This document shows positions 428 through 61,500 of a stretch of 64,000 bases of DNA, piece by piece. Under the pieces are notes generated by a model. It had not been told where the DNA came from and did not search any database. It saw only the letters and a program-made list of their open reading frames with translations. The DNA is from a virus: positions 64,001 through 128,000 of IMG/VR virus record IMGVR_UViG_3300034782_000062; one strand, given 5' to 3'. Made by a program: the position numbers and the translations under genes. The first letter of the stretch is position 1. Every line of letters starts with the position of its first letter.

Positions 428-753
428 CCGCTTCGCCAGGTTCGAGCCCGGTCCTGGGGACGGGCGCCGTGGGCTCCCGTGCGCTGACCGTGCGTTCTCC
501 CCCGGCTTCCCCAGGGTTCCCCCAGGGCTCCCCTACGGGGAGCCCTGGTGTGCCGTGGGCCAACCCGCGTGATTTCGAGCACTTAGGCGTCTGCGCCCTG
601 GGAGCTGACCGGGATAGGATGGCACGGGGCTTGCATTGGGCGCGGGCATCGGTGGGCGATTCCCGGCGATCGTGGTACACTCCCCGTGGCCGGGTGTGAT
701 ATGCCCCGTAGGTGCCCGTAATCATTGGCGAAAAAAAATATCAAAAAAAGGGG

Positions 754-781
754 TTGCAAACCGTTCAAACGGGCGTAGAAT
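754..781 (+). promoter_or_regulatory. Putative sigma70-type early promoter TTGCAA-16-TAGAAT with upstream A-tracts
   Basis: Near-consensus hexamers with an A-rich UP-like element at 731-749, upstream of the long + strand gene run. Confidence 0.55.
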
Positions 782-1324
782 CATCATACCCCCTCTCGTA
801 TGCGGGGGGGCGGGGGCCACGCCCCCAGGGTCATTGACAACCAAGCGGGCCACGGCGGAGCAAGCTAGGGCTCCCCTCGCCCGTCCCTCGCCCCTGGCAC
901 CGAGAGGTGCTAGCCCCCGTCTGCGCGGGGGTTTCCCACGGCTCCCGTCGTGGCCTGGTGGTTCCGCCACCAGAGGGGCGCGGAGACGTCCCCCTCGCGG
1001 GCGCGACGTTGCACACTACCTCAACCATCCCAACTAGCGCGCAGTCTGTCACAGTGGCGCTAGCGCTCCCTCAGTCATCCCCAGGATGATTGAAAGCGCT
1101 GGTCCGTATGGTCGGCGTAGCTTGCGCGTTGCGTCGTGTACTCTGGATTAGGGTGCACCGTTGCGCGATCTGGCTTAGTCCCTGACAGAACAACGTTAGC
1201 ATTGTCCCCTTCCCCCTGGGCACGCTCGAAAGGGCGTGCTCAGGTTTGGAGCCTCGAAGCGAAACAGCGTTTCGAGGTTGCAAACCTGAGCACACCGCTC
1301 AGTGCAGGACAGGAGGGACAAAGC

Positions 1325-1543: not shown

Positions 1544-1622
1544 AAAAGATCGTCCCCAGGACGAAGGACAAGGTCTCGCCTTTGGCGCACCAGTCGAGTC
1601 GAACGGCACGACACAAGCCAGC

Positions 1623-1739
1623 ATGACCGCTCATATCGTGATCATGCCTGGTGGCGTCATGCTGATTGACGAAGCGCTCAACCTCGACATTGGAAAGCCC
1701 GTTAGCGGGCCGATCCACTGCAACAACGGAAGGGATTAG
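1623..1739 (+). CDS. Possible very small hypothetical protein (38 aa; may start at GTG 1533)
   Basis: Fills the gap between DUF2997 and DUF1257; weak RBS. Confidence 0.3.
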   Translation: MTAHIVIMPGGVMLIDEALNLDIGKPVSGPIHCNNGRD

Positions 1740-1742
1740 GTC

Positions 1743-2255
1743 ATGAGCAAGTTTCGCGTTCACAAGTCTGTCGTGCAGTCAACCGACGCTATCATCGAGG
1801 CGTTGATTGACCGCATTGTTCAATTCAACTGTCGCCACGTCCCCGCTGACAAGCTCGAAGAGGAGATCGCCAAGTGGACCGAAAAGGCAACCAAGCTCGT
1901 TGCCGAAAAGGTCCAGGTCTGCCTCGATGAGCCGGTCAACCTCTACGGATACCAGGGCGACCGTCGCGACGAGGTTGCTCACGTTCGCATCCCCGCAGAC
2001 GTGGTCAACAAACATCTCGGCGGGGGGCTGTCGAATGACGCCGGTTTTCGCAAGAGTGCCGACGGTTTCGAGGCGATCATCAGCGATTACGACAAGGGCA
2101 AGTGGTGGAACAACCAAGAGGGTCGTTTCTGGCAGGTCGCCGCTGCGAAAGAGGCCGAAGATCTCGCATGGCTCCAACCCAACGTGATCGGCGTCGAGCG
2201 CGTAGAGAATGAAGAGACGGGCTTTATTGAGATTCTCTGCACCGTTCAAGACTAG
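1743..2255 (+). CDS. DUF1257 (Ycf35-like) protein
   Basis: EPVNLYGYQGDRR...SNDAGFRKSADGFEAIISDYD is the characteristic DUF1257 core. Confidence 0.8.
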   Translation: MSKFRVHKSVVQSTDAIIEALIDRIVQFNCRHVPADKLEEEIAKWTEKATKLVAEKVQVCLDEPVNLYGYQGDRRDEVAHVRIPADVVNKHLGGGLSNDAGFRKSADGFEAIISDYDKGKWWNNQEGRFWQVAAAKEAEDLAWLQPNVIGVERVENEETGFIEILCTVQD

Positions 2256-2371
2256 CCTATTGCTTCACAATCAAATCGTCATGAGTCGCCGCAAGGCGGC
2301 TCAACAGTGCGTCAAAGTCTGCACGATTTTGGCGTACTGTTGAGTCACTTTCTGGCTCAAATGGAGGGACA

Positions 2372-4078
2372 ATGGCAGCTAACAAAAAGAATGGTAAGAA
2401 CATGCTTGCGCGTGTGCAGACCATCATCTCGGCGCGGGTTCCCGTGATCTGGTTTCTCACCGGTGAGGAGCAACGAGCCGAAAGTGGACTGGCAAATCTC
2501 GCGAAAAACATGGACTTCAAGGGGCACAAGGGAATCTGCGCTATCTGGTCTCTGACCAGTGGCCTGGACGGCAAGCCTGGTTGGACGCACGCTGATGGTT
2601 GGCTCGAAGAGCGAATCAACGGCAAGGCAGTCAACACGCCGATCCCCGACAATTTCGCTCCAAACGCTCAAATGGCTTCGAGCCCTCACGGGGCGATTCT
2701 CCAGGCTAAGAAATTTGCCCTGGAGAACAAAACGCAACCCATGATCCTCGTGGTCAGGGACGCTCACATGTTCATGGGTTCCGACCCGTGGCGGCGAGCG
2801 TTGAAGGACTGCGCCCGTGAGTTGCGCAACACGCTCACCACGGTTGTCCTGGTCTCGGTCTCCGACCAGATCAAGGATGACTTGCGGCGACACATTGCGC
2901 TGGTCAAGCCGGGATTGCCGAGTGTCGAGGTGTTGACTTCAAACGCCAAAAACGCTCTTGCAAAGCTCGGTGCAAAAGGCGTTCACCCCCGCGACTGTGC
3001 TCTCGCTTTACGAGGGTTAGGCGTGGGTCAAGCGACCGACTTGATCAAGCTCGACTTTGTCGAGCATGGCGACGTCGATCCAGAGCGTCTTAGTCGACTG
3101 AAGGCCGAAGAGCTTGCATCGGTCCACGGTGTGAGCTTCGAGGGTGAGGCCCATCAAATGGGCCAGGTCGGCGGGCTCGACCACTACAAGCGATGGCTCA
3201 ACAAGCGAACCCACGCCTTCACTCAAGCGGCGAGGGAGCGCGGTATCGATGAGCCCAAGGGTTGCGTTTTCGTCGGTGTGCCAGGGGGTGGAAAGACCCT
3301 CACGGCACGCGCCACGGCGGCAACGCTCAAACAGCCCTTGATCGTTCTCAACCTCAGCGAGTGTGAGGGCGGAATCGTTGGCGAGACTGCGACCAGAATG
3401 GCCGAAGCCTTGCGGACGGTCGATGCACTCGCCCCCTGCACCGTGCTGATCGATGAAATCGAGAAAGCGCTTGGCAGTGGCGGCGAGAATGACGGCGGGA
3501 GCAAGCGAACGCTGGTCCGCTTGCTCTTGATATGGCTCCAGGAGCGTCAATCTCAGGTGTTCACCTGCATCACCTCGAACGATATCAGCGGGCTCCCGCC
3601 CGAGCTGACTCGCAAGGGGCGCGTGGACGAAATCTGGTTTGTCGATCTGCCCAACCAGGCCGACCGCGAAACCATCCTCAACATTCACCTCAACAAGCGG
3701 AGTGAGCGCAAGCTCCCCGCGAAGTCGGTCAAGTCGATCGCTGGCAAGCTCGCCGGTTTCACGGGCAGTGAAATCGAGGAGTCGGTCAAAGAGGCAATCT
3801 TGACTGCGTGGGCTCGATACTGTGAGGGCGAGTCGAAAGACGACACTGTCACAACCGACGACGTCGTCGAGGCGGCGAAAGACATCGTTCCCATGAGCGT
3901 CACCTATGAGGCCAAGCTCGCCGCTCTTCGGGACTGGGCCAAGGGGCGCGCACGCCGCGCCAGCGACCCGGACCCCGATCAGGTCGAGAGCACGCCTGTT
4001 CGTCCCCAGGACGAAGGCGAAGCCCCCGCGCCCGGTACACCGATTTTCAATCGTGAAGCCCTGACCGACCCCTGGTGA
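2372..4078 (+). CDS. Ycf46-like AAA+ ATPase
   Basis: Walker A GVPGGGKT, Walker B VLIDEIEK, SND...LPPELTRKGRVDEIWFVDLP sensor and Arg-finger region, degenerate N-terminal AAA domain. Confidence 0.9.
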   Translation: MAANKKNGKNMLARVQTIISARVPVIWFLTGEEQRAESGLANLAKNMDFKGHKGICAIWSLTSGLDGKPGWTHADGWLEERINGKAVNTPIPDNFAPNAQMASSPHGAILQAKKFALENKTQPMILVVRDAHMFMGSDPWRRALKDCARELRNTLTTVVLVSVSDQIKDDLRRHIALVKPGLPSVEVLTSNAKNALAKLGAKGVHPRDCALALRGLGVGQATDLIKLDFVEHGDVDPERLSRLKAEELASVHGVSFEGEAHQMGQVGGLDHYKRWLNKRTHAFTQAARERGIDEPKGCVFVGVPGGGKTLTARATAATLKQPLIVLNLSECEGGIVGETATRMAEALRTVDALAPCTVLIDEIEKALGSGGENDGGSKRTLVRLLLIWLQERQSQVFTCITSNDISGLPPELTRKGRVDEIWFVDLPNQADRETILNIHLNKRSERKLPAKSVKSIAGKLAGFTGSEIEESVKEAILTAWARYCEGESKDDTVTTDDVVEAAKDIVPMSVTYEAKLAALRDWAKGRARRASDPDPDQVESTPVRPQDEGEAPAPGTPIFNREALTDPW

Positions 4079-4136
4079 GACCGCGCAAGCGTCTTCATTC
4101 TACAACGCATCGATCGTCCCCAGGACGGTCGATCCT

Positions 4137-4203
4137 CTCCGGCAAATGTGGTTCAATCGTCCCCAGGATGATTGAGCGGGTTCGACCCCCGCGTCGGAGA
4201 CCG
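4137..4203 (+). ncRNA. tRNA-like element 1 (D-stem-less, tmRNA-TLD-like fold), ends A-CCG
   Basis: Acceptor CTCCGGC/GTCGGAG; 9-nt linker containing GG; 10-bp helix TCAATCGTCC-CCA-GGATGATTGA; T-arm GCGGG-TTCGACC-CCCGC. Confidence 0.7.
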
Positions 4204-4247
4204 GGAAACAACAGCCGGCAATGTATCAAGCCGGCAGGAGGGACAAC

Positions 4248-5261
4248 ATGGCTAACGAGACAAACGGAACCGAGACCACCGAGGAGACCACCGAGGAGAC
4301 CACCGAGAGCACCCCCGAGATCGTTCATGTGATCGATCCCGAGTCTCTCGTCATCAAGTCGATTCTCCCCGGCATTCTCGTCAACCTGACCTGTCATATG
4401 CGGGGTGGGCGCGAGACGAAACGGGAGGACATCAAGGTCCGCAAGGGCAAGGGTGGTAAGAAAACCGAGACCTGGAAAGCAGTCCGCGTCATTTACGACG
4501 AGGACGAGCTAAAGCGGGCAGACAAAGAGCGGGCCAAGGTGCATCGTGACGTCAAAAAGCTCGGCTGCGAAACCGCCGTGGGGCTGATCGTCGCGGCACA
4601 CCGCAAGCAAGAGCTTGCGCAGACCCTCTCCGCTTGCCACAACCGGGTCAAGGCGTTCAACAAGACCGCTCAAACCATGGACCTCGTCTTTCGCTATGGT
4701 CTGTACAGTGTCGAGGGCAACAACAGCGGCACTATCGCGGCTGTCACCGAGCAGCTCGGCGACATCTTGGAGCGCGTCAATGGCGCAGTCCAGGCCGACG
4801 AGCAAGCGATCTTGGAGAACGCCCGCGCCAACCAGCTCGGCGACTTCAAGACCGCGAAAGAGGTCATGAAGGCCCCCCGCGAGCAGCGGATCGCCATCAT
4901 CGCCAAGATTCGGGCGGACCTCGCCCGCAAGGCGATCGCCGAAGCCAAGTCATTCTCCACTCTGCTCCCCGAAGAGGCCGGGCTCGCCGTGACCGACATG
5001 GTCGCTTCGATCCGCAAGTCGGCGACGGCTTGGGTCAAGGCGAGCAAGGAATCCGACGAAGAGTATGAGGCCGCGCTCAACACCGTGGACTCCGACATGA
5101 TCAGCGATATGCAGGCCGCGCTCGTCCAGGCGGCGGCACTCGCGGACCAGTCCGCCGAAGCCGAAACCGAAGCGATCGCCGACCAGGGCGACCTCTTCGG
5201 CGACGGCGAGGTGGAGGAGGAGATCGCGGGCGACGGCGACGACATGGTCGGCGCGATCTAG
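4248..5261 (+). CDS. Hypothetical helical protein, DUF3150-like
   Basis: SD AGGAGGG. The LVNLTCHMRGG...VIYDEDELKR...LGCETAVGLIV...ELAQ pattern resembles DUF3150 by eye only. Confidence 0.6.
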   Translation: MANETNGTETTEETTEETTESTPEIVHVIDPESLVIKSILPGILVNLTCHMRGGRETKREDIKVRKGKGGKKTETWKAVRVIYDEDELKRADKERAKVHRDVKKLGCETAVGLIVAAHRKQELAQTLSACHNRVKAFNKTAQTMDLVFRYGLYSVEGNNSGTIAAVTEQLGDILERVNGAVQADEQAILENARANQLGDFKTAKEVMKAPREQRIAIIAKIRADLARKAIAEAKSFSTLLPEEAGLAVTDMVASIRKSATAWVKASKESDEEYEAALNTVDSDMISDMQAALVQAAALADQSAEAETEAIADQGDLFGDGEVEEEIAGDGDDMVGAI

Positions 5262-5326
5262 CTCGGTTCCGAAACATCGTTACCAACCCGAAACCGGCTC
5301 AATCGTCCCCAGGACGGTCGAGCCGC

Positions 5327-5394
5327 GCACGGCAAAGCAAGGATCGAACGTCCCCAGGACGGTCGAGCGGGTTCGACTCCCGCGCCGTGCCCCA
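5327..5394 (+). ncRNA. tRNA-like element 2 (D-stem-less, tmRNA-TLD-like fold), ends C-CCA
   Basis: Perfect acceptor GCACGGC/GCCGTGC; linker AAAGCAAGGA; helix TCGAACGTCC-CCA-GGACGGTCGA; perfect T-arm GCGGG-TTCGACT-CCCGC; encoded CCA. Confidence 0.8.
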
Positions 5395-5425
5395 AATCAT
5401 CCCCAGGACGAAGCGAACGGGACGC

Positions 5426-5465
5426 AAAAAGCGCGAGGCTGGCTCGACCGGCCCGCGCTTTTTTT
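5426..5465 (+). terminator. Intrinsic terminator, possibly bidirectional
   Basis: AAAAA-GCGCG(A)GGCTGG-CTCGA-CCGGCC-CGCGC-TTTTTTT. Confidence 0.75.
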
Positions 5466-5638
5466 GCCGCTTCACTGAGCATTTCGAGGCGCGGTCTGCG
5501 CCTCACTAGCCTTTTTTTGCGATTCACTAACCATTTCGTTTCTCGGTGGCCCGATTGGGCTCCTCGGCTTGGGACCGTCCCTCCCTCACGGTTGGGGGGT
5601 CCAATCGAGTCACTGAGCAGCGAGAGAGGAGGGACAAC

Positions 5639-6322
5639 ATGATCGAGGTAAAGTGCCCGAAGTGCCGCGAGCGGCTAGCAGGTTATTTGGTGCCATTTGA
5701 AAAGGCATTAGCTTGCCGCTACTGGAACAAGGAAGAGAACGAGGGGGCTGTCATCCTCGCCAAAGGGACGACGATCAAGCTCGTCAAGCCCTGGCGACAG
5801 CAGAAGCGCGATGTGTTCGGCAAGAAGCAAAAGCGGGCTGCCCGCTGGCTCGCCAAGCACGACATCAGAATCGCCACTACGCACCACTACCGCAACGACT
5901 ACTGTGTCGCCGTCAACAACCACGACAACAACTCAGCCGATTCGGCGTGCCTCTGCGACATCCCCGAAGACGTTTACGAGCTTGGCGGACCCGGAGCCCA
6001 GGCTCACATCGACGAGGACCGCGTGCCGCTCCTCGAAATCCATCTGGAGGAGGAGAAAAAGGCCCGCGAGAAGGCTGAGGCTGAAGCCGAGGATCTGGCG
6101 ATCGCTCGTCGCATCGACAAGCAGCTCGCCCGCTTCGAGAAGCTCGGCATCAAGGCTCGCCGCTCGACTGGATTCCCCGGTATGCGTACCCGTTCGATCA
6201 GCATGGACCCCGACGAGATCGAGCGGGTCCTACTAACGCTGGAGCGCTACGTCGAGATGATGAACGAGAAGAAGGCGGCAGAGGCCGAGGGCGAGGCCGA
6301 AGCAGACACGACGACTCACTGA
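5639..6322 (+). CDS. Hypothetical protein with N-terminal CxxC
   Basis: SD AGGAGGGACAAC-ATG; 227-aa ORF. Confidence 0.8.
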   Translation: MIEVKCPKCRERLAGYLVPFEKALACRYWNKEENEGAVILAKGTTIKLVKPWRQQKRDVFGKKQKRAARWLAKHDIRIATTHHYRNDYCVAVNNHDNNSADSACLCDIPEDVYELGGPGAQAHIDEDRVPLLEIHLEEEKKAREKAEAEAEDLAIARRIDKQLARFEKLGIKARRSTGFPGMRTRSISMDPDEIERVLLTLERYVEMMNEKKAAEAEGEAEADTTTH

Positions 6323-6325
6323 GTA

Positions 6326-6391
6326 TTCCAGTTCGTTCCAGTGCCGTTCCAAAACTTTCCCGTCGGGGTGTGAAAGTCCCGACGGGAACCA
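6326..6391 (+). ncRNA. Four phased TTCC boxes followed by a minihelix-ACCA (6358-6391), copy A
   Basis: TTCC at 6326, 6336, 6347, 6357; 12-bp stem TCCCGTCGGGGT/GTCCCGACGGGA (2 G-U pairs); loop GTGAAA; then A-CCA. Confidence 0.7.
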
Positions 6392-6432
6392 ACAGAGCGT
6401 CCCCAGGATGGACGTAAAACAGGAGGGACAAC

Positions 6433-6798
6433 ATGTCTGAGCAAACCGAAGCACAGGGCAAGCCCATCGCCGCCACCTACGAGGGAATGCTCCAACTCGC
6501 CCTCGCTGGACGACGTGGGAGCTTAATGAAGGCTGCGCCGCTCCCCAAGCCCGAGGAGTGCACCGAAGAGGACATCCCTGTTCTTTGCAAGAACATCGAG
6601 TCACTGAACACTTTTATCGGCGAGCTGATCGACCTCGTCGGCGAGAAGGAGCGCAAGCTCAACCTCGCCTTGGAGGCCCACGCCATTCGCACCGAGGGGC
6701 TCGACGACATGCTCGAAACGCTCGACTCGATGCGCGCCCAGATCATCAGCGTGCGCGACGAGAGCGGCGAGCTACTCGAAGAGATGGACGCAGACTGA
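6433..6798 (+). CDS. Hypothetical coiled-coil protein
   Basis: SD AGGAGGG; heptad-like acidic C-terminal half. Confidence 0.8.
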   Translation: MSEQTEAQGKPIAATYEGMLQLALAGRRGSLMKAAPLPKPEECTEEDIPVLCKNIESLNTFIGELIDLVGEKERKLNLALEAHAIRTEGLDDMLETLDSMRAQIISVRDESGELLEEMDAD

Positions 6799-6816
6799 CC
6801 ATCCCCAGGACGAATA

Positions 6817-6883
6817 TTCCAATCTGTTCCGGCGACATTCCAAACCATTCCCGGCAGGGTGTGAGAAGCCCTGGCGGGGACCA
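6817..6883 (+). ncRNA. Four phased TTCC boxes followed by a minihelix-ACCA (6849-6883), copy B
   Basis: TTCC at 6817, 6827, 6838, 6848 (same 10/11/10 spacing as copy A); 12-position stem with one G-G mismatch; loop GTGAGAA; then A-CCA. Confidence 0.7.
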
Positions 6884-6925
6884 CTAAACAACATGCGTCC
6901 CCAGGACGCAGAGAGGAGGGACACC

Positions 6926-7171
6926 ATGAGATGTATGTGCGGAGGCTGCCACGACTGCCTGGCAGCACAAGGCGGATACGACATTCCCGAGGAGTGCCCA
7001 GTATGCGGAAAGCCCAACGCTGACGAGGATGGCGAGCCTGTGTATCCCCAGGACTCGGCATTCTGCTCGGAGCACTGCGCCAACGAGTACGCCGCTGACC
7101 AGCGCTTCCACGACCACAACCTCTACCTCGATTATGTCGAGACTGAGCGGCTCATCGAGGAGACGTCATGA
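6926..7171 (+). CDS. Small Cys-rich, probably Zn-binding hypothetical protein
   Basis: CxC-CxxC, CPVC and CSEHC motifs; SD AGGAGGG. Confidence 0.75.
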   Translation: MRCMCGGCHDCLAAQGGYDIPEECPVCGKPNADEDGEPVYPQDSAFCSEHCANEYAADQRFHDHNLYLDYVETERLIEETS

Positions 7172-7581
7172 CTATCAAAGGACTAATCGACGACATCAAA
7201 GAGGCGAAGGAGTGCGTGCATGATGTCGGAGCGACTCCAGTTGCCGACATCATCACGACTTGCGATCAGGCCGACATGTGTCTTCAGGACGCTCTGATCA
7301 GACTCGAATCCCTGGACGGTGTGCCAACACGGCGGTTTGATGACTGGCTTCTCATCATCAACGAATCATACTCAGACTACGACGTCGAGGATCACGCAGC
7401 GTTCACACTGGCACAGTTCCTCGACGTTCTCATTAACCACTTCTCCATCCCACCGCCCTCGGAACAACCCGACTCTCCTCCCTACTACGAATGCCCATCG
7501 TGCGAGTTTCGCGATCGCGCACAGCCCGCTCGGTGTCCGTGCTGCGGTACTCCAGGTGATTCATTCGAGTTCGAGGAGTGA
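7168..7581 (+). CDS. Hypothetical protein with C-terminal Zn ribbon
   Basis: CPSC...CPCCG; ATGA overlap with the upstream stop. Confidence 0.75.
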   Translation: MTIKGLIDDIKEAKECVHDVGATPVADIITTCDQADMCLQDALIRLESLDGVPTRRFDDWLLIINESYSDYDVEDHAAFTLAQFLDVLINHFSIPPPSEQPDSPPYYECPSCEFRDRAQPARCPCCGTPGDSFEFEE

Positions 7582-7589
7582 GTGACTTT

Positions 7590-7627
7590 CTCTCGCCGCT
7601 GGCCTTGGAGCTGGCAGCGAGGGACCA
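7590..7627 (+). ncRNA. Hairpin ending A-CCA (38 nt)
   Basis: CTCTCGC.GCTGGC paired with GCTGGC.GCGAGGG (13 of 14 positions), then ACCA; followed by the palindrome and an SD. Confidence 0.55.
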
Positions 7628-7658
7628 GCGGCGTCCCCAGGACGCGAGGAGGGATAAA

Positions 7659-8036
7659 ATGCTTTTTCCAAGAAGACGACGAGTCGTGACGGACATCAAG
7701 TCCGTCTCTCTGGAGGCTGGCGCCAAGCAACTCGCTCGCAAGCTCACCGAGATGACGTGGTGCGGCTGTAATGGGTTTCGTCTTGGGGATTATCTCTTCC
7801 TCAATGACTCGACGAGCCCGGACGGAGCCCAGGAGTACGCTGTCGTTCACGAGCCGAGCATGCTTCAGTGCGAGAGCATCACGTTTAGTTGGTGCAGCCG
7901 CGCCAAAGCACTCGAATACATCCTCAAGACGATTCGCGGCGAGTTCAAGCCGTGGCGCGAGCCCACCCTGCCCAAGCCTGGCCAGCTCATCATCCAGACC
8001 CAGGACGAACACGGGACCTGCGTTCACTGCGCATAG
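7659..8036 (+). CDS. Hypothetical phage protein
   Basis: SD AGGAGGG before ATG 7659, preferred over GTG 7578. Confidence 0.75.
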   Translation: MLFPRRRRVVTDIKSVSLEAGAKQLARKLTEMTWCGCNGFRLGDYLFLNDSTSPDGAQEYAVVHEPSMLQCESITFSWCSRAKALEYILKTIRGEFKPWREPTLPKPGQLIIQTQDEHGTCVHCA

Positions 8037-8045
8037 GAGGCTCAA

Positions 8046-8363
8046 GTGAGACAAGCAAAACGAAACCTCATGGGCAGGCAAGAATGCGCGACCTGTGAGC
8101 AGGTCATCGAACCCCGTCAAGGCGAGGAATACCACGGCGCCTGCAAATGCTCCACTTGGCACTACTACGAAGAGGGCGGCTGGTATCATCTGGAATTTAT
8201 GGCGCACGTTTCGCGCCTTCGCGAGCGAGCCGAAAGCCATATCAGCCGCAGGACCACCACCGTTTTCGATGTTTGCTCAGAGCACGGGCAGATGCTCGAC
8301 AACGTCCAACACATGGAATGGCTCGTCCTCGCCGTCATGGACGAGCTGGAAGAGTGGAGATAA
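8046..8363 (+). CDS. Hypothetical protein (Cys motifs)
   Basis: SD AGGAGG, GTG start. Confidence 0.7.
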   Translation: MRQAKRNLMGRQECATCEQVIEPRQGEEYHGACKCSTWHYYEEGGWYHLEFMAHVSRLRERAESHISRRTTTVFDVCSEHGQMLDNVQHMEWLVLAVMDELEEWR

Positions 8364-8392
8364 TCGTCCCCAGGACGAAGAAAGGAGATGAT

Positions 8393-8647
8393 ATGCCCCA
8401 AACCGAGCCGGTCGAAGCCGATTCTGTATGGACACAGTTCGGCGAAGCGATCGGAGCTTTCGTCAATCACCCGGACTACTACAAGGGTCGCTGGTTCGTT
8501 CAGTGGCGCGGCGGTCGTCGGGTCTGCTCGAATCACACCACCGCTTCCGCATGGTGCAAGTACCTGCGCCGCAACTTCAACGACGGCTGGACCGCAACCA
8601 TCGGTCGGGCCGACCCTCTGCCGGGATTCCCTCGGCGGCTCCATTAA
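8393..8647 (+). CDS. Hypothetical protein
   Basis: Palindrome plus SD AAGGAG immediately upstream of ATG 8393. Confidence 0.7.
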   Translation: MPQTEPVEADSVWTQFGEAIGAFVNHPDYYKGRWFVQWRGGRRVCSNHTTASAWCKYLRRNFNDGWTATIGRADPLPGFPRRLH

Positions 8648-8660
8648 CCTTTAACACCTT

Positions 8661-8696
8661 CTCTGTTGCAGCAGCTTTCGCGTGCAACAGGGACCA
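8661..8696 (+). ncRNA. Class II hairpin-ACCA (cap GCAGCTTTCGCG)
   Basis: 10-bp stem CTCTGTTGCA/TGCAACAGGG, then A-CCA. Confidence 0.65.
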
Positions 8697-8759
8697 GTTT
8701 TTTTGTCAGAAGTCAGCAACTATGTTCGTCCTGTACAATGGACGAAGAAAGGAGCAGCC

Positions 8760-9233
8760 ATGCTTGCAGCATTGGTCGCAGAAGAAATCAAGCGTATGGA
8801 GCACGAGGACCAGTGCCCATGCCTCCCTTGCTCGATCAACTCGCTCCTACGTGACGTCGGTCGCTGGAAGCACATGCACGGGGAGTGCGACTGCCCGGTC
8901 TGTGAGCGCGGAATCGAGGCGATCACCAAGCACGGTAACGAGCTTGAGCGCATGAAGGCCGAGTACGAAAAGCGTCTTGAAGACGCAGACACAGACGACA
9001 TCGTCATCATCACACCTGAGCGGCACGCGCAGGCCGAAGAAGCTCGAAAGCTCATCCCCGTCATGGAAGCACAGATGGCGATGCTCGTCGCCACAATCGC
9101 TGAGCTTCTCGAAGACTTCCACCTCACTCTGAGAGCAGCCCACGCGGCTTTCGACGCCATCGCTGGCGAGCGGCAAGAGCCCGAGGCTGTTGTCGTTCGA
9201 CTTCAGCCTCGCCACGACTTCAGCATCAACTAG
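8760..9233 (+). CDS. Hypothetical protein, Cys/His-rich N-terminus and coiled coil
   Basis: SD GAAAGGAGCAGCC-ATG. Confidence 0.75.
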   Translation: MLAALVAEEIKRMEHEDQCPCLPCSINSLLRDVGRWKHMHGECDCPVCERGIEAITKHGNELERMKAEYEKRLEDADTDDIVIITPERHAQAEEARKLIPVMEAQMAMLVATIAELLEDFHLTLRAAHAAFDAIAGERQEPEAVVVRLQPRHDFSIN

Positions 9234-9256
9234 CTACCAATAGACAAACAAAAAAT

Positions 9257-9293
9257 CCTCAAGACGGTTAGCTTTCGCGCCGCTTGAGGACCA
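9257..9293 (+). ncRNA. Class II hairpin-ACCA (cap TTAGCTTTCGCG)
   Basis: CCTCAAG(A)CGG/CCGCTTGAGG, then A-CCA. Confidence 0.6.
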
Positions 9294-9509
9294 TGGTTCT
9301 CGACGCTGGAGGCGTCGGTATGCCGAGTTATCACGAATGAAGGCCAGGGTGGTAACGCCCCCATGTCACAGACGGGAGAAAGGCATGAAAAGGCCGACCG
9401 AGAAGGGAAGGCGTGGATGAAAGCCATCGAACCGGTGTAGATGGTGAGTAAGGTACGGCTTCGAGAATCATGTTTTTAGCGTCTACAGGACGCAGAGAGG
9501 AGGGATACC

Positions 9510-9938
9510 ATGAAGAAACGACAGTATGAAATGTATGTTGGGTTTGGAGTGCCCGGCGGACACTGGAACACCAAGTTCATCGAAGCCTCAACGCCCGAGG
9601 AGGCAGAAGAGAAGCTGCTCGAAAGACTGGACCGCGAAGGTGTTGAGCACGTCTCGTTTGTCGGCGTCTACCATGAGGGCGACATCATCGAGGACGGCGA
9701 AGACGATGAAGACGAGGACTGGAGCGCCTACTGCGACTACGAACTGAGCGACAACCAAAAGCAGTTCGTTCGGGACGCCGAGGAGCAGGGGCTCGAAATC
9801 AATTGGGACTATTCCGGTCGAGGCATGTTCGGAAAGTGCTGCCCCGCCGTCATGGTCGATGGGCTCGGCGAGTTTCACACGACAGCAAACTACGAGTCCG
9901 ATAGCATGGGGCTCGGGTTCGTCATCTACGCCCGGTAA
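9510..9938 (+). CDS. Hypothetical acidic phage protein
   Basis: SD AGGAGGG. Confidence 0.8.
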   Translation: MKKRQYEMYVGFGVPGGHWNTKFIEASTPEEAEEKLLERLDREGVEHVSFVGVYHEGDIIEDGEDDEDEDWSAYCDYELSDNQKQFVRDAEEQGLEINWDYSGRGMFGKCCPAVMVDGLGEFHTTANYESDSMGLGFVIYAR

Positions 9939-9970
9939 TAATTCATCCCCAGGACTGAGTAATACGTTTT

Positions 9971-10005
9971 CTCTCGTTGGTCAGCTTTCGCGCAGCGAGG
10001 GACCA
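9971..10005 (+). ncRNA. Class II hairpin-ACCA (cap GTCAGCTTTCGCG)
   Basis: 9-bp stem CTCTCGTTG/CAGCGAGGG, then A-CCA. Confidence 0.65.
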
Positions 10006-10047
10006 TCGCGTCGCAGAATCTTTCGCGTCGCAGAGAGGAGGGATACC

Positions 10048-10743
10048 ATGTCTGATATGAAGTGCCCCAAGTGCGGGTACGACGGCGGTTGGTTCAGCAT
10101 TGAAGCGACATCCGTATTCCAAGTCGCCCCTGACGGCACTGACGATTATGGCGACGTCGAGTGGAACGATAACTCATCGTGCCAGTGCTCCGAGTGCTAT
10201 CACGAGGGAACGGTTATCGAGTTCACGCCAGTTCTTCCGCGAGTCAAAGAGAAGCTAATCGAACTGGCTGGCTACGTTGACTCGGCTGACATCCAGCTCA
10301 TCGACGCGATCCGGGGCATCGCCGACCACTGCGAATACAAAACCGAGAATCAGGTTTTCGATGAGCTGCTAAAACTCGGTCACGAGATCGTGGACGCCGA
10401 GTCGTTCGACGAACTGACGGTACTCGATCTGTTCATGTGCGCCCACTGGCTCACCCGATGCCAGTATCACGAGATCATTCTCTGCTACGACGATCGGAGC
10501 TGGGACAACGTCTATGTCCGCGCACCGTCCGCCGAGCAAGCGCGCCTCGTCGCCTACGACGAGAATTCTGCTCCCTACGCTTTCCATGTTCAAGAAATCC
10601 CCGAGACTGAGCTTTCCGACTACGCGATCGACATCGGAGAGCAGCCCTTCGACTGGAAAGAGGACCAAACTCAGCGTGCATTCGAGGAGGCCGGGAAGCT
10701 CGCTGACAGCGCCGTGGCAGATGCGCATCAGGAGGACGACTGA
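10048..10743 (+). CDS. Hypothetical protein with N-terminal Zn ribbon
   Basis: CPKC...CQCSEC; SD AGGAGGG. Confidence 0.75.
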   Translation: MSDMKCPKCGYDGGWFSIEATSVFQVAPDGTDDYGDVEWNDNSSCQCSECYHEGTVIEFTPVLPRVKEKLIELAGYVDSADIQLIDAIRGIADHCEYKTENQVFDELLKLGHEIVDAESFDELTVLDLFMCAHWLTRCQYHEIILCYDDRSWDNVYVRAPSAEQARLVAYDENSAPYAFHVQEIPETELSDYAIDIGEQPFDWKEDQTQRAFEEAGKLADSAVADAHQEDD

Positions 10744-10934
10744 TGGCAACACAGGACAGATGGAACAAGTGGGGCCAGCATTGGCTTGCCACGCTGGAGG
10801 AGATGGAAGAGAACGCCGAGTCACCCGACGAGGAGCTGACCACCTTCGAGCGCAACCTCAAAGAGCAGTTGCAAACTATGGTCGTCCGTCCCCAGGACGA
10901 GGAAGGAAAGGACCATGACACCGACCGAGATTGA
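10743..10934 (+). CDS. Small hypothetical protein
   Basis: TGATG coupling to the upstream gene; overlaps the next gene by 20 nt. Confidence 0.55.
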   Translation: MATQDRWNKWGQHWLATLEEMEENAESPDEELTTFERNLKEQLQTMVVRPQDEEGKDHDTDRD

Positions 10935-11229
10935 AATGCTCAAGCTCCACGACAAGTTCCTCGCATTTATTAAGCGAGGCAGAATCAAGTGGGAAATGCT
11001 GCCCATTAAGGACCACCCAGAGGCGATGGGCTACACCGGCACCTACGGACGATCTCCTCTCTGGCGTTTCGTTGTCGCTTCATTCGACATCGAGAACCAG
11101 GGCTTCCCCCCCGGATCCAAGGGCTATGATGGCACCGCGACCGATCTTAGCAGCGGGCGCGTCATCCATTTGCCCCGCGAGACCGCTACCGCTCTCGGCC
11201 AGGACGCTGAAAAGGCGTTTATTCAGTAA
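10915..11229 (+). CDS. Hypothetical protein
   Basis: Palindrome plus purine-rich RBS upstream. Confidence 0.7.
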   Translation: MTPTEIEMLKLHDKFLAFIKRGRIKWEMLPIKDHPEAMGYTGTYGRSPLWRFVVASFDIENQGFPPGSKGYDGTATDLSSGRVIHLPRETATALGQDAEKAFIQ

Positions 11230-11259
11230 AAATCCCCAGGACGAAGAAAGGAGCTGACA

Positions 11260-11598
11260 TTGCGCGTCTGGTATCCAATCCCCCCGCTCTGCCTCGACGG
11301 CCCGAGGCTCACGGGCGTTCACAACGAGATTCACGCCATTAACAACATCATCCTCGACCCCGAGAAGGGCTATCAACATCACCCCGAGGTCAACCGCTGG
11401 CGCGGCTTCCTACCCGCGCTCGCTGCCTATCACGACCTCGTCGTCCAAGAATCCTGGCGACGAGGCTGGAAGATGGGCACCAACCACAAGACACCACTCT
11501 TTCACGACGGCCCGGTCGTGTGGCCCGAATTCATCGAGCCGATCGAGGTCATGCGTGCCAAGCTCGCAGCAAAGTGGGCCGCAAAACTCGCCGCGTAA
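11260..11598 (+). CDS. Pyrimidine-dimer DNA glycosylase / endonuclease V (DenV-like) family protein
   Basis: MRVW..PP..L....L...HNEIH...KGY.HHPE..RWRG...L..YH...V.E...RG...H.TPL pattern; TTG start after AAGGAG. Confidence 0.7.
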   Translation: MRVWYPIPPLCLDGPRLTGVHNEIHAINNIILDPEKGYQHHPEVNRWRGFLPALAAYHDLVVQESWRRGWKMGTNHKTPLFHDGPVVWPEFIEPIEVMRAKLAAKWAAKLAA

Positions 11599-11618
11599 TC
11601 CCCAAGACGAACATACAT

Positions 11619-11655
11619 CCTCGGCGTGGTCAGCTTCCGCGCACGCCGAGGACCG
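11619..11655 (+). ncRNA. Class II hairpin-ACCG (cap GTCAGCTTCCGCG)
   Basis: Perfect 10-bp stem CCTCGGCGTG/CACGCCGAGG, then A-CCG. Confidence 0.6.
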
Positions 11656-11664
11656 AGGTACGAA

Positions 11665-11958
11665 ATGAAAGAACGTTTTTTAATCGTGACGGACGGTGGC
11701 GGCGAGGACTTTTACTATCACCTCGTCAAGCCGAGCATCTGGGAAGAGTACGGACGGGAGTGCAAAAGGACGAAGCACTACTCTCGTGGCTCGGTCATGT
11801 CTGCGGTTAATGACCGGCTCTTTCCTAACGGTGATGTCTACGAGGCGATCATAGAGAATGAAAGCCCCGACGAAGACTTCGCCTTTTTCACAAACGCCTT
11901 CGAGGTTTTTCGGTTCTGCGAGGAGCATGGGCTGAAGATTGTCGGTGGCATCGGATAA
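11665..11958 (+). CDS. Hypothetical protein
   Basis: SD GAGGT before ATG 11665. Confidence 0.7.
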   Translation: MKERFLIVTDGGGEDFYYHLVKPSIWEEYGRECKRTKHYSRGSVMSAVNDRLFPNGDVYEAIIENESPDEDFAFFTNAFEVFRFCEEHGLKIVGGIG

Positions 11959-11990
11959 AATCCGTCCCAAGGACGGGGAAAGGAGCAGCC

Positions 11991-12803
11991 ATGACTGTTT
12001 TTTACTGGACCGTCATCTACTCGCACCGGCACGGGACCGACGCCTGGCCGGTGTTCGCTCATCAGTGCAAAGACCCTGAACGCGGCCCGACCGAGGAAGA
12101 GGTCATCGCCATCATTGGCGAGGATCTTTACGAGCCAGACAGCGAGGACGAATGGATCGAAATCGGCGGTCGCCAGACGATCGAGCTTCCCGATCACAAC
12201 GAGCTTCACTTCTGGCGCAAGACAGCCGCCGAGCTTTACGGGCTCGCCAGCGAGAGCACCATCGAGGAGCACCTGAGCGAGTTGCAGCAGCGACGATGCA
12301 CTGCAGCCCTCAACGATGAAGTCGCCGAGGGTATTGAGGACGAACCGACACCCGTGCCGACTCACTCCTTGCCACCCACCGAGACTTGGTACACCTGGCG
12401 CATCCTGGCGACGGTTGAGGGAGAAACAACCCGAAGACTCCTTGTTCCATGGTCTGACCCTCACAAGCACGAGTTCGCCTTCGATTTTATCTACAAGACG
12501 CCCGAAGAAGCCCGCGAGGGCCTGAAGACAATGGGCGCAGAAGACGACGCCGAAGAAGAGGGCTGGATTCTCTGCAAGAAGACCCTGATCCCCATCGAGC
12601 GCCTTCAGGGTGAGCCAACCCCTCGACCTCTCCCACAGACGATGCCTTCGTCCGAAGACATTTACCGAGAGCGAGCCCGAGAGTTTTTCCGACACGAGCT
12701 GGATGAGAACGACTGGGACATCGACGACGAACCCCAGGTCTCAGAGAGCAACGACGGAGCTTACGTCTCCATCTGGCGTTGGTTCCCAGCCGAAGACGAG
12801 TAA
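11991..12803 (+). CDS. Hypothetical acidic protein, probably multi-module
   Basis: SD GAAAGGAGCAGCC-ATG. Confidence 0.75.
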   Translation: MTVFYWTVIYSHRHGTDAWPVFAHQCKDPERGPTEEEVIAIIGEDLYEPDSEDEWIEIGGRQTIELPDHNELHFWRKTAAELYGLASESTIEEHLSELQQRRCTAALNDEVAEGIEDEPTPVPTHSLPPTETWYTWRILATVEGETTRRLLVPWSDPHKHEFAFDFIYKTPEEAREGLKTMGAEDDAEEEGWILCKKTLIPIERLQGEPTPRPLPQTMPSSEDIYRERAREFFRHELDENDWDIDDEPQVSESNDGAYVSIWRWFPAEDE

Positions 12804-50058: not shown

Positions 50059-50097
50059 TTGGACGGCTCCGTGCCATGGTTTATCATCCTGAGGATT
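50059..50097 (+). promoter_or_regulatory. Putative promoter TTGGAC-17-TATCAT overlapped by the palindrome
   Basis: -10 at 50082-50087; palindrome at 50086-50096; drives the fibre-like operon. Confidence 0.6.
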
Positions 50098-58556: not shown

Positions 58557-58577
58557 CGAGGCGTTTGGAGAGATACG

Positions 58578-61500
58578 ATGAGTAACATTTTCGTCACAGA
58601 CATCATCGGTACCGGAACCTATGCCGTTCCTACGGACGATACGGAGCTTGCCTCTGCGTCCTCAGGACTTAACACGTTGCTTGGTGGCGTCGCGAACTTG
58701 ACCTACGATCGCGTTTTGGCGTGGGTCGAGGACTCCGGTGGTCCAGGTGGCGCTGAAGGCAATCGAACCCTGAACTGCCTCATCGAAAAATTCACCTATC
58801 TAACAGACGAATGTCCGTCTGAGGCCAACGTCGACACGATGATCGCCGCGATTGAGTCGACGCTTGAAGCCGATGCCAACATCACGTCCGTCGACAGGCA
58901 GGATGTACACATCTTCCAGGCGGGCGCCTACTTCTTGTGGAATCGAGACTCCGCCGGTGGGTTCCTCTATCCGAACACGGCGACCGACGATGTCGCGGTT
59001 GGGCCGTTCGCAAGTCCAAACGGTAAGTGGTTCGACGATGGTGACCTCGTCCTGGGGACGGACGCCATGGTCGGCGCCGAGCAGCTCTATATCCTCGATG
59101 ACGATGAGACGGCGAACAACGTTGGTGCGAGGGCTCGTACCGAGAAGGATTCGACCGGAACAAAAGCCGGATGGACAGGCTTCGTTTCAGAGGTGCAGCA
59201 CACAGGAGCAGGCCCCGGAACCCTCTATCTTGGCTTCGCTTCCTCGAACACCTACAACAACGCTGCTGCTGATATCGATGATGACATCGGATTTGTCTGT
59301 AACCCAACCGTCACGGCTGTCAATTCCTTCGATAGGCTGACTGGGTTCTTCTCACAGCCTACGATTGCGGCCGGGCAGACGGTCACTCGATATAAGGGTG
59401 TGTCGATCGATGGCATCAATGGCGCAGGCACGGTAACGACGTCGACAGGGATCGAGGTCAACGACGTCGGTCTCAACTCGACGACGACCTACGGAATCGA
59501 GATTGACGCTCAGACCGGAACGACAGCACGCGGCATCTACTGCGATGACTCCATCGAGCTGACGGGCACCATCGTTATCGGAGAGAACGCCGACCATACG
59601 GTGGCTCCAGCGGCCGGAACAGGGCTGCTGTGGGTGCGGAGCGATACACCGAACCGGGTTATTTTCACAGATGACGCCGGCACTGATCAGGTGCTCCAGT
59701 TTGGCTGGACCGAGTCCGAGGTCATCTACGTCGCAAAGTTCGGAAGTGACGCGAACGATGGCCAGTCGCTCACCGAGCCAAAGTTGACGGTTGGTGCGGC
59801 TATTACAGCCGCTGCGGCTCTGACTCCAAGCGCAACGAACCCGATCGTTATCTACGTATACCCAGGTGTCTACTCCGAGCAGATTGTTCTGTCGAGCGAT
59901 TATGTATCGCTGTTCGGTGTTGGTGGTCCTGACAGCGTGATCATTGAAGACGATACGGATGCGAGCCAAGTCCTCAGGATGGGGGCTTGTGACAATATCG
60001 AGGTGCGAAACATTCACTTCCGTGGCATCACGAACAACGTTGACGCTATTACCTGTGCTCAATTCACACTGAACAACATTTTCAGGAATTGCAAGTTTAC
60101 GTCAAAGGGGACCGGGCGATCGGAGCTTGATGGTGGGTTCGCAAGCAACCGCCTGGTCATGGATTTTTATAACTGTGTATTCACACACGCGGACAATGAT
60201 GGTGTGAACGATCCTGTCGCCATCTTTATGGATGACGCGACCCTCAACTTCAACGACTGCACCTTCGAGGGTCGAGGCACCGTGAATAACGGTGTCATCA
60301 GCGTTTACAAGAGCTGCAAGTTCAGAGCCGCGACAAGTGCAGCGGCGACGCCTATATGGACGTTTACTAGCGCGGTTACGATGCTGGGGTGTGACGCCGA
60401 AAACACCAACGTTGGTAACGTCTTCGAGCTTGATGTAGCTGGATGCCAATTCCTTGGTGGACGACTATGGGCGGGCAGTGATGCCTCGGCGCGCGAGCTT
60501 TCTTCGACATTCACAACAAAATGGAGGGTCGCCTGCTCCGGTGTCGTGATGAACAACGGCATGGCAGGCACCATCTACCGGGACGAGCTGATTCACTACG
60601 TCGGTGACTCCGGGGACTGCGACTTCCACGTCTCGCTCGAAGCTGCTTGCGACGGCCTGCTCAACACAGGTGGGACCGTCTACCTCATGCGCGATGTGAC
60701 GGTTGGCTCGAACATCGACAACCAGCATCAGTCTCTGACCATCGACGGGATGAACAACTACAGCATTGACCGTGGAAGCGATGCGCTGTTGTTCGAGCAG
60801 AACGGCTTCGACCCCCAGGTCTTCACGCTGAAGAACGTCGAGATTATCCAGGGCCGGATCGAGTGGGACAGGGTACAGGCCGGAGTGCTTAACCTAGTAC
60901 AGGTTACTGGTGGAACGCGCATCATTATCGACAACTACGTCGCCGGCAAAGAGGTCAATATCCAGAACTGCGATATCACCGTCGCGGCGACGGACCAGCC
61001 ATTTATCGACTTCATCGGGGGCGCTGCCTGCCCGCTGATTATCCGGCAGTCGAGACTGGAGGGTAATGGTACGCAGCCGGCGATCGATCTTGATGTCTCC
61101 GCGACAGCTCTGGATGTGTCCTACTCGGTGCTGACCGAGGGCTCAACGGCGGGGACACCGATCTCGAATCCTCCTGGCGCTGTATCGATGATCAGTCATC
61201 ACAATCTTTACAGCACAAGCCCGTTCGGAGGTAACCTCTCAAACAGTGTTACGAACCCCTACGATTCTCCGATCGGATCGGCTGGAGCAAGCCCGTGGAC
61301 GAGTGCCGCTGGCGTCATCTATCCGGCGACGGGTACCGATGATGTCGCAATTGGCTCGACGACGATGGCGGGAGCTGAGCGTCTCTACATCCTTGATGAG
61401 GATGAGACAGGGAATATCGTCGGGGCCAGGGCGCGAGTAGAGAAGGACTCGACGGGAACGAAGGCCCAGTGGACTGGGTATGTAGCCGAAGTGCAGCACA

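Follow-up and report, generated by a model that had tools for sequence, protein, structure and literature searches.

The start-associated sequences of the Cluster K mycobacteriophages are short, asymmetric sense-strand words that directly precede the start codons of many genes and overlap their ribosome-binding sites. The Noc-binding sites of Bacillus subtilis, which are read by a ParB-family protein, and the cyanobacterial HIP1 element are short palindromes with many copies per replicon, both within and between genes; they are chromosomal and not placed relative to gene starts. The OB sites of plasmid RK2, about 12 in number, are found at promoters, near promoters and far from promoters. The OB word itself is a 13-bp palindrome with a 6+1+6 build around a central G/C pair, read by KorB, a ParB-family CTP clamp (PMC11790492). 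The stoperator of Cluster A mycobacteriophages is a 13-bp asymmetric site bound by a monomeric repressor of the L5 gp71 type with two DNA-binding domains, and more than 20 such sites occur in a genome of about 50 kb (PMC9283540); the bound repressor halts both initiation and elongation.

The word described here is most likely a variant of this operator/stoperator kind, in a symmetric form that is new. RTCC-YCA-GGAY occurs in 42 exact copies on both strands of the 64-kb window (the whole stretch of 64,000 nucleotides analysed), against 0.34 expected and a maximum of 3 for RTCCYCAGGAY among 100 dinucleotide shuffles; the original prediction had recognised this enrichment from a count of 39 copies, which is corrected here. 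A motif search of the full genome and of relatives, proposed there as a check, bore the enrichment out: the whole 182,770-bp genome holds 71 strict copies against 1.1 in shuffles, and about 125 copies of the looser family RTCYY-S-RRGAY against 9.5 (about 10) expected, making this the top over-represented 9-mer and 11-mer family of the genome. The palindrome is 11-15 bases long, with a build of 5+1+5, up to 7+1+7, the core GTCCT-C/G-AGGAC and about 100 sites across the 183-kb phage; flanking bases extend it to TCGTCC-YCA-GGACGA, and the extended form CGTCCT-S-AGGACG (13 bp) has a build of 6+1+6. Roughly 30 of the 71 strict copies (~42%) are intergenic, about a 3-fold excess over the 14% of non-coding DNA given by our own crude gene calls, and the other ~58% are intragenic, in either orientation.

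Two coupled words make up the motif. One is the perfect 5+1+5 palindrome GTCCT-S-AGGAC, which is dispersed, mostly intragenic and found in both orientations; the other, GTCC-CCA-GGAC, is concentrated between 1 and 22.5 kb of the window, sense-oriented and, as a rule, 15-23 nt ahead of start codons. Within this early block, the interval 1.0-22.5 kb contains 23 strict copies, of which 21 read CCA on the + (sense) strand (binomial p = 7e-5). The claimed sense bias is thus real, and the claim that all 21 copies there read CCA is not, since two further copies (17403 and 17775, both intragenic) are antisense and read TGG. Local GC skew was rejected by reasoning as the source of the centre-base bias, as a skew of ~0.05 cannot give 21 of 23.

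As had been claimed, copies stand shortly before Shine-Dalgarno (SD) sequences: eight intergenic copies, each ending 15-23 nt short of a start codon, abut the 5' side of the SD. On the + strand, GTCCCCAGGAT (6399..6409) ends 23 nt before the start at 6433 and abuts the SD on its 5' side, and GTCCCCAGGAC (6897..6907), which follows a hairpin ending in ACCA and is accompanied by a second copy directly after the upstream stop codon (6801-6811), ends 18 nt before 6926. The copy at 7633..7643, downstream of a hairpin ending in GGGACCA, ends 15 nt before 7659; that at 8366..8376 ends 16 nt before 8393, and GTCCTCAGGAC ends 15 nt before the start of the orthologue of this gene in the relative L002. 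Further along the same strand, 10888..10898, within the end of the preceding overlapping gene, ends 16 nt before 10915, ATCCCCAGGAC (11232..11242) ends 17 nt before a TTG start at 11260, 12865..12875 ends 15 nt before 12891, and 16402..16412, directly after a gene for a winged-helix-like protein, ends 15 nt before 16428. Other early-block copies accompany structured elements. Of two (4116 and 4159; 4116..4169, +), the second forms the tip of a long hairpin within a tRNA-like element with a GGTTCGA T-arm, where ARAGORN called no tRNA; three (5305, 5350 and 5399; 5305..5409, +) lie within and beside a second such element, which has CCA at its end; and those at 9945, 11598 (the variant ATCCCCAAGAC), 15975 (the variant ATCTTCAAGAC) and 18323 (9945..18333, +) follow stop codons and precede hairpins or tRNA-like elements. 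Four copies or variants (78, 106, 451 and 1077; 78..1087) occupy the 1.3-kb divergent non-coding region that separates the leftward late genes from the rightward early block. The intragenic copies of the block (1552..22473) are sense at 1552, 4002, 7044 and 22463 and, as stated, antisense at 17403 and 17775.

In the rest of the window, 12 of 18 copies read TGR relative to local transcription, so that the majority reported by the original prediction is found but is not significant (p = 0.24). Perfect-palindrome copies on the - strand precede several middle and late genes: 25249..25259 (ATCCTGAGGAT on the + strand) lies 125 nt upstream of a helicase gene, two copies within 38682..38775 lie 150 and 67 nt upstream of an M23 peptidase gene (38843-39583), 41981..41991 precedes the start at 42021 by 29 nt, and 50086..50096, which shares its divergent region with a variant copy at 49858, lies 32 nt upstream of the gene at 50129 that opens a rightward operon of virion-protein-like genes. 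The remaining strict copies, at 28249, 29572, 31974, 37886, 42468, 43437, 45298, 45932, 46904, 50594, 58658, 59049 and 59970 (to 59980), are mostly intragenic and in either orientation. At genome position 21091, the site centre lies ~32 bp upstream of a transcription start predicted from a TATACT -10-like hexamer, a distance at which the site would overlap the -35 position.

Several features indicate that the word is recognised as duplex DNA and not as an RNA hairpin, namely the independence of its half-sites, its fixed arm spacing and its selection at the nucleotide level within genes; the original prediction, which had preferred double-stranded DNA to RNA wobble, is upheld in this. At positions +-5, 67 pairs are of Watson-Crick type where independence would give 61.8 (20 and 21.6 when only intergenic sites are counted), and A.C (29) and G.T (37) are of similar frequency; the bases at +-6 likewise vary independently between half-sites. 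A spacing of 3 separates GTCC and GGAC arms in 32 cases, as opposed to ~3 at spacings 0-2, 4-6 and 8-15, and a small peak at spacing 7 is caused by an extra adjacent half-site. The idea of an RNA hairpin was set aside on account of the absence of covariation and the background frequency of other loop sizes, and a search of Rfam found no matching family. Intragenic copies number 41, against 5.0 when synonymous codons are shuffled (~8-fold) and 0.8 when codon order is shuffled, with ~19 in sense and 22 in antisense orientation; 23 of the 41 are read as xP(Q/E)Dx, in agreement with the peptides first noticed. The half-site variant GGAC to AGAC (TCTT for TCCT) was rightly said to occur on both sides of the centre (13 versus 13), and among the examples offered for it, 63450 has a T at the centre and 9479 reads GTCTA-C-AGGAC.

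A palindrome with independent half-sites implies a dimer, and to this extent the symmetric dimeric reader first suggested fits the data. Such a dimer does not account for the one-way facing of 21 of the 23 early-block copies, nor for the inner T-to-C variant, which is tied to a C at the centre of the same strand (35 occurrences versus 3 otherwise), nor for the sense-strand centre base that is fixed in the copies of relatives.

Among these relatives, L002 is syntenic with 8-25 kb of the window, its proteins being 30-69% identical and its GC content 48.5% against 56.7% here. It carries the same word, with 14 strict copies over 20.8 kb where 0.06 would be expected, likewise before ribosome-binding sites, and all nine SD-proximal copies are sense-oriented. 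Site positions are poorly conserved between the two phages, with an upstream site present in both for only 2 of 17 orthologue pairs. In comparable positions L003 carries a different word, TTCTG-A-CAGAA, of which 7.2 kb contain 9 copies (0.01 expected); the odd palindrome at equivalent places in L009 has the core ATCG-A-CGAT, and both words have a fixed centre base on the sense strand. The early-block word of G001/L009, which is 20 nt long, asymmetric and confined to one strand and to the early block, looks more like a promoter or RNA signal, and a genome-wide palindrome was not found in G001/L009. Relatives retrieved with the ParB protein each have their own dispersed palindrome. A word that differs by lineage is what would be expected of a co-evolving pair of protein and site. 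In three lineages the early inter-gene build is the same: a stop codon, a hairpin with (A)CCA at its end or, in its place, a tRNA-like minihelix, 6-10 nt, the palindrome and the SD. Neither megablast nor blastn found a nucleotide relative among GenBank phages; single-protein searches of IMG/VR yielded no relative for the ParB protein and one distant relative for the helicase, and genome contigs searched with a narrower ParB alignment gave no match. An exact 15-mer scan of IMG/VR returned single matches and no further relative. As for a host repeat or uptake sequence, the same scan of 185,579 species genomes gave, among the matches listed, singletons, one locus (L079) where two adjacent copies are separated by 184 nt, and no relative, and a scan of these genomes for two sites 15-45 nt apart gave singletons or tandem peptide repeats among the matches listed.

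We propose that one sequence-specific phage protein docks on the motif in duplex DNA as a symmetric dimer, within an operator/stoperator-like network, an explanation that we hold to be somewhat better than an even bet; protein binding, the identity of the reader and repression by binding are what we infer. Each subunit would read one half-site, tc-R-TCC-T, the two being opposed across one central G/C pair, and the ~100 sites would form a genome-wide network. In the early block, where a site lies 5' of many ribosome-binding sites or just past stop codons, the bound protein would most plausibly halt or hinder RNA polymerase along a multi-gene transcript, leading to joint shut-down of the early genes in stoperator fashion. 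The sites before middle and late operons (25249, 38682/38765, 41981 and 50086) could occlude or assist a promoter, and the intragenic sites may serve as extra roadblocks or loading points.

The resemblance in distribution to stoperators, as first pointed out, is fair. As in the Cluster A network (PMC9283540, PMC6550527), dozens of copies of a word of ~13 bp are dispersed over the genome, here in part at possible promoters and in short spacers, their orientation follows transcription (here only in the early block), and the word differs among related lineages. In contrast to the asymmetric Cluster A site, the word is palindromic with independent half-sites, implying a dimer; unlike in Cluster A, well over half of the strict copies are intragenic, the genome is 183 kb long, and no integrase or immunity repressor was found in Pfam screens of 112 proteins of 55-300 aa, drawn from outside the leftward late block, and of ~20 larger ones. 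The RK2 network (PMC11790492) shares with this phage the palindromic 6+1+6 design around a central G/C pair and a ParB-family protein encoded in the same genome, and differs from it in that the ParB recognition helix here appears not to co-vary with the word and no KorA-like partner was found; the ~100 sites here also exceed the number of RK2 OB sites. The word differs from the Cluster K start-associated sequences in being palindromic, in its position 5' of the SD and in occurring also within genes and in antisense, and from Noc sites and HIP1 in its 3-fold intergenic excess and tight position before ribosome-binding sites. With its ~100 sites the word gives access to an uncultured 183-kb phage in which hardly any protein is annotated: it can be used as bait for its reader, it sorts genes into control classes, and the lineage-specific palindromes of the relatives provide a natural series for the co-change of protein and site. 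Should the sites be roadblocks, the stoperator strategy of small temperate actinophages would be present, in a symmetric, dimer-read form, in a much larger and very different virus as well.

A different role is conceivable for the network as a whole, in which the word is not a classical operator and instead serves as the loading or anchoring site of a ParB/Noc/KorB-type clamp or of another genome-organising protein that compacts, partitions, marks or silences the 183-kb genome; as a highly iterated palindrome, it might also be a methylation or recombination word. We regard this as unlikely. In its favour, a genuine ParB-family protein is encoded in the early block, CGTCCT-S-AGGACG shares its 6+1+6 build and central G/C with the KorB operator TTTAGC-G-GCTAAA (PMC11790492), the majority of copies are intragenic, in both orientations and distant from promoters, and the ParB-fished relatives have dispersed palindromes of their own. 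The ParB helix is, however, closer to that of L003, which has another word, than to that of L002, which has the same one, the GGYCAGTGA repeats at window 254-429 make a better candidate ParB or initiator site, and the intergenic excess together with the tight placement before ribosome-binding sites points to gene control. Genes for a ParB-methyltransferase and other DNA methyltransferases are present in the genome and also speak for such a role; restriction and methylation words, for their part, are usually avoided rather than enriched.

The one-way facing of the early copies raises the question of a signal that acts on one strand. It is doubtful, and less probable than a clamp site, that the word is doubly used, as a duplex operator genome-wide and as the strand-specific third part of an early inter-gene unit in which a hairpin or tRNA-like minihelix with a terminal NCCA is followed by an odd palindrome, its centre base fixed, and then by an SD. 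At least three further sampled lineages (L002, L003 and L009/G001) keep the build of this unit while using another palindrome; the unit would couple transcript cutting or 3'-end protection with protein docking, perhaps with the involvement of a neighbouring RelE-fold RNase-like protein, and would, if real, be a new punctuation or shut-off device of phage early genes with an unrecognised reader family. Slightly less probable again is that the early-block word acts purely as a one-strand RNA signal (hairpin ending in NCCA, palindrome, SD), with a triloop hairpin UCGUCC-CCA-GGACGA that marks processing, protects a 5' end or binds a translational repressor or nuclease. The sense orientation of 21 of the 23 early-block copies and of all nine SD-proximal copies of L002, the fixed centre in L003 and L009, the constant inter-gene build in three lineages, two copies at long-arm tips of tRNA-like elements and the RNase-toxin-like fold of a conserved protein beside the ParB gene all suit such a signal, but the arms show no covariation, the commonest state of intergenic sites at +-5 is the A.C mismatch (14, against 9 G.U), other loop sizes do not rise above background, no Rfam family matches, the stem of the L003 word would be 4 bp, AU-rich and of ~0 kcal/mol by our own nearest-neighbour estimate, and the 41 selected intragenic copies in both orientations are left unaccounted for, as are those upstream of late operons. 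Promoters, or core promoter parts, of phage-directed transcription that would make each small early gene its own unit with a short leader, in the manner of the promoter/stem-loop cassettes of T4-type phages or the hairpin promoters of N4, are the least probable of these explanations. The 6-bp stem and 3-nt loop of the word match the shape of N4 early promoters, its single orientation and fixed distance to the start codon are promoter-like, sigma-70-like promoters are not above chance at 1-20 kb of the window (4 against 4.5 expected), and the single-strand word of G001/L009 is restricted to the early block. Against this, no RNA polymerase or sigma factor was found: a search for sigma-70 region 2 was negative with a working control, a search for T7-type polymerases (PF00940) gave no match but is uninformative, since its control gave none either, and Pfam identified nothing RNA polymerase- or sigma-like among the large proteins. 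Moreover, a palindrome with independent half-sites is not promoter-like, the 41 selected intragenic copies in both orientations would yield antisense transcripts, and an extruded hairpin would be destabilised by the A.C mismatch that one site in three carries.

For the docking site of a dimeric protein that we prefer, a search among candidate proteins of this genome identified no binder. The ParB-HTH candidate (14898..15953, +; 351 aa) named in the original prediction is a genuine ParB-family protein with a ParB HTH domain (Pfam PF17762, E 2.4e-11), matching Spo0J (1vz0), a ParB family protein (7bnk) and Noc (7ng0) in the PDB, and its gene carries two variant copies (14991 and 15234). Its recognition helix, ITVANVRQLLKL, is least like that of the motif-sharing L002 (KSAQQINNYLKL) and nearer to that of L003; judged by this crude test on four sequences, the helix appears not to track the motif, and the GGYCAGTGA repeats, of which there are eight, are the candidate ParB or initiator site noted above. 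The conserved 98-aa protein encoded upstream of the ParB gene is predicted to fold (pLDDT 95; Z 5-6.5) like the toxins RelE, MqsR, BrnT, colicin D and CdiA, and this RNase-toxin fold, which is not an HTH, excludes it as a KorA-like partner. The winged-helix-like 106-aa protein at 16069..16389 (+), also proposed earlier, does resemble MarR/PadR winged-helix regulators in its model, which makes it a lead only, and neither L002 nor L003 has an orthologue in the syntenic position. The ribbon-helix-helix assignment at 32265 was not sustained, Pfam giving no convincing signal for it and weak, sub-threshold zinc-finger hints instead. An HTH protein at genome positions 180341-181060 has weak Pfam matches and no orthologue in G001-G003. 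The closest homologues of the ParB-family protein are P0002, P0006, P0011, P0026 and P0032.

The original prediction had counted 39 exact copies of the palindromic word RTCCYCAGGAY; the enrichment stands, and the number is corrected to 42 in the window against 0.34 expected, with 71 against 1.1 in the whole genome. This record, of which the window covers bases 64,001-128,000, is a single sequence of 182,770 bp (completeness ~95% by CheckV; GC 56.7%) carrying 31 tRNA genes and a tmRNA near its right end; searches of GenBank phages gave no nucleotide relatives, and most of its proteins have no Pfam or PHROG match. The RTCCYCAGGAY family tops an unbiased ranking of over-represented 9- and 11-mers, its consensus with flanks is TCGTCC-YCA-GGACGA, and when it is loosened to accept Y at the two inner positions of the arms and S as centre base, there are ~125 copies versus 9.5 expected. 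The family divides into two words. GTCCT-S-AGGAC is a perfect 5+1+5 palindrome whose 36 copies are dispersed genome-wide, with 12 sense and 14 antisense copies within genes. GTCC-C-C-AGGAC (35 copies) has the inner T of one arm replaced by C, and the inner-C arm nearly always adjoins the centre C on the same strand (35 vs 3); the TCTT variant has no coupling to the centre (13 vs 13). Twenty-four of these 35 copies fall within window 1-22.5 kb, a block of 30-odd small rightward genes termed early here; gene boundaries are our own crude calls, and the labels early, middle and late rest on gene order only. The 21 strict copies proposed at 1.0-22.5 kb, all in sense orientation, proved to be 23, with CCA on the sense strand in 21. 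In the early block, eight copies end 15-23 nt upstream of a start codon, immediately 5' of the Shine-Dalgarno sequence (SD), and further copies lie directly 3' of stop codons.

Some copies depart from this plan. An extra half-site adjoins the palindrome at window 10883, 50593 and 59048 and genome 142959 (CGTCC-GTCCCCAGGACG or GTCCTGGGGAC-GGACG), and the copies at 50593 and 59048 are located in two genes, inside a common repeat of about 50 nt. At window 8727-8754, CGTCC-TGTACAAT-GGACG occupies the usual pre-SD place with the arms of the word 8 nt apart rather than 3; no second case of this sort occurs, and the site is probably defunct or altered.

Recognition as double-stranded DNA rather than through RNA wobble pairing, as originally proposed, is favoured by the absence of covariation at the outer arm positions (±5) and by a single arm spacing. 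The ±5 combinations G/C, G/T, A/C and A/T number 41, 37, 29 and 18, which fits independence (67 Watson-Crick pairs vs 61.8 expected), and between genes the A.C mismatch is the most frequent state. GTCC/GGAC arms occur 32 times at spacing 3; other spacings are at background (about 3), apart from a minor peak at 7 caused by the abutting half-sites, so there is no hairpin family with other loops. Within genes, 41 strict copies are found against a mean of 5.0 (maximum 11) after synonymous-codon shuffling and 0.8 after codon-order shuffling, so selection acts on the peptide xP(Q/E)Dx as well as on the choice of codons producing the word. Given that the word is palindromic, its orientation-independence in genes cannot alone exclude RNA, and the argument against an RNA hairpin is carried by the covariation and spacing tests. 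Taken together, outer-arm covariation, arm spacing and the codon shuffles favour a rigid duplex site that would be read by a symmetric dimer.

ParB-family homologues were used as a lead to related metagenome and IMG/VR loci. The relative L002 (GC 48.5%) is syntenic with window 8-25 kb, sharing 17 orthologues (30-69% protein identity), and holds 14 strict copies in 20.8 kb versus 0.06 expected; nine of them lie 13-20 nt upstream of start codons, where all nine have the centre C on the sense strand and belong to the perfect palindrome rather than to the CCA word. An upstream site is present in both genomes for only 2 of the 17 orthologue pairs, a pattern in which the system appears to be retained while single sites turn over. 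In L003, a relative with five early genes in common with this phage, the 5+1+5 palindrome is another one, TTCTG-A-CAGAA, present 9 times in 7.2 kb (0.01 expected) with a sense-strand centre A, before SDs or beside hairpins. The spacers of this phage, L002 and L003 are built alike: a stop codon, then a hairpin or tRNA-like minihelix with (A)CCA or a comparable C-rich tail at its end, a few bases, the palindrome and the SD. The word of L009/G001, AACTGAGATCGACGATAC, is a 20-nt asymmetric sequence with an inner 4+1+4 palindrome, present as 11 copies on a single strand of the early block only (98-109 kb); G001 has no genome-wide palindrome. In a further related locus, L004, AGCGCTCG is dense (28 copies in 12 kb). 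L002 keeps the word with a GC eight points lower, which argues for a property of the phage lineage. In scans of one genome per species for the 15-mer and for two sites 15-45 nt apart, the matches listed were singletons or tandem Asp/Pro/Glu-rich peptide repeats from many phyla, one locus among them (L079) having two adjacent copies.

On balance, we lean towards a dimeric phage regulator that recognises the word as duplex DNA. Its likeliest action would be to stop or impede transcription across the early block and to occlude or help certain promoters of the middle and late regions; the site at genome 21091 is centred about 32 bp upstream of a start predicted from a TATACT -10-like hexamer. Two patterns are left unaccounted for by the dimeric duplex reading: a centre base that is fixed within the early block in each of four lineages, and the coupling of inner C and centre C. 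Both may stem in part from shared ancestry and gene conversion among repeated cassettes of site plus SD, such as the near-identical ones at L002 8144 and 8420. The coupling is present too in in-gene copies elsewhere in the genome, so strand-specific reading, whether as RNA, promoter or single-stranded DNA, may still apply to the early subset. The closest system in its working is the operator/stoperator network of Cluster A mycobacteriophages, whose defining feature is an asymmetric site read by a monomer (PMC9283540); the present word lacks that feature and is not filed as a member for this reason. In build, the site resembles the KorB operator (PMC11790492), and this phage also encodes a ParB-family protein.

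That protein (window 14898-15953), an originally suggested reader, is a true family member. However, its presumed recognition helix does not track the word, being ITVANVRQLLKL in this phage, KSAQQINNYLKL in L002 with the same word and ITKQNVGQLRKI in L003 with a different one, so that co-variation of the sequences lends its candidacy no support. Eight GGYCAGTGA repeats, including a perfect 14-bp palindrome (TCAGTGATCACTGA), lie at window 254-429 in a 1.3-kb divergent non-coding region and are a candidate for a more ordinary site of ParB or an initiator, or for an origin iteron. The second suggested reader, a 106-aa protein at 16069, yields a model similar to those of MarR/PadR winged-helix proteins (TM 0.52-0.59), a likeness compatible with a dimeric reader, but it has no orthologue at the syntenic place in L002 or L003. 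The third, a supposed RHH protein at 32265, gave just weak sub-threshold zinc-finger hints. When 112 proteins of 55-300 aa encoded elsewhere than in the leftward late block were screened with Pfam, just one more HTH protein emerged (genome 180341-181060), with no orthologue in G001-G003.

Directly upstream of the ParB gene, as korA precedes korB, is a conserved 98-aa gene (window 14486-14782; orthologues at L002 9239-9919 and L003 1888-2199). Its predicted fold (pLDDT 95), two helices and a four-stranded sheet, best matches the RNase toxins CdiA-CT, MqsR, BrnT, colicin D and RelE (Z 5-6.5), and it was therefore dropped as a DNA binder. The family, which has no Pfam model, counts over 1,000 members about 90-100 aa long, with His20 and Arg28 invariant; in L002 the protein is a tandem duplicate in one chain. 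The gene of each orthologue contains the palindrome of the lineage concerned, as a copy or near-copy.

Several other elements were observed. tRNA-like minihelices at window 4130-4215, 5320-5395 and 16000-16060 and at L002 about 11040-11110 possess acceptor stems, long arms, canonical GGTTCGA T-arms and CCA or CCG ends, and neither ARAGORN nor Rfam calls them; L002 has retained the minihelix that follows the ParB gene, and many other early spacers have a hairpin with an (A)CCA end. A 578-aa protein (window 18410-20974) has a Cas12f1-like TNB domain (Pfam PF07282, E 8e-7) and matches PHROG transposases; after it comes a CRISPR-like array of about ten copies of the 37-nt repeat GTCACAAAGGCTATCTCTACAGCCTATGAGTAGAGAC, with spacers of about 30-36 nt. 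The gene at window 36911-38425 on the minus strand encodes a ParB-like N-terminal domain fused to a DNA methyltransferase (PHROG 67/498, ParB-like families), and at least one further N6/N4 DNA methyltransferase occurs among the small proteins.
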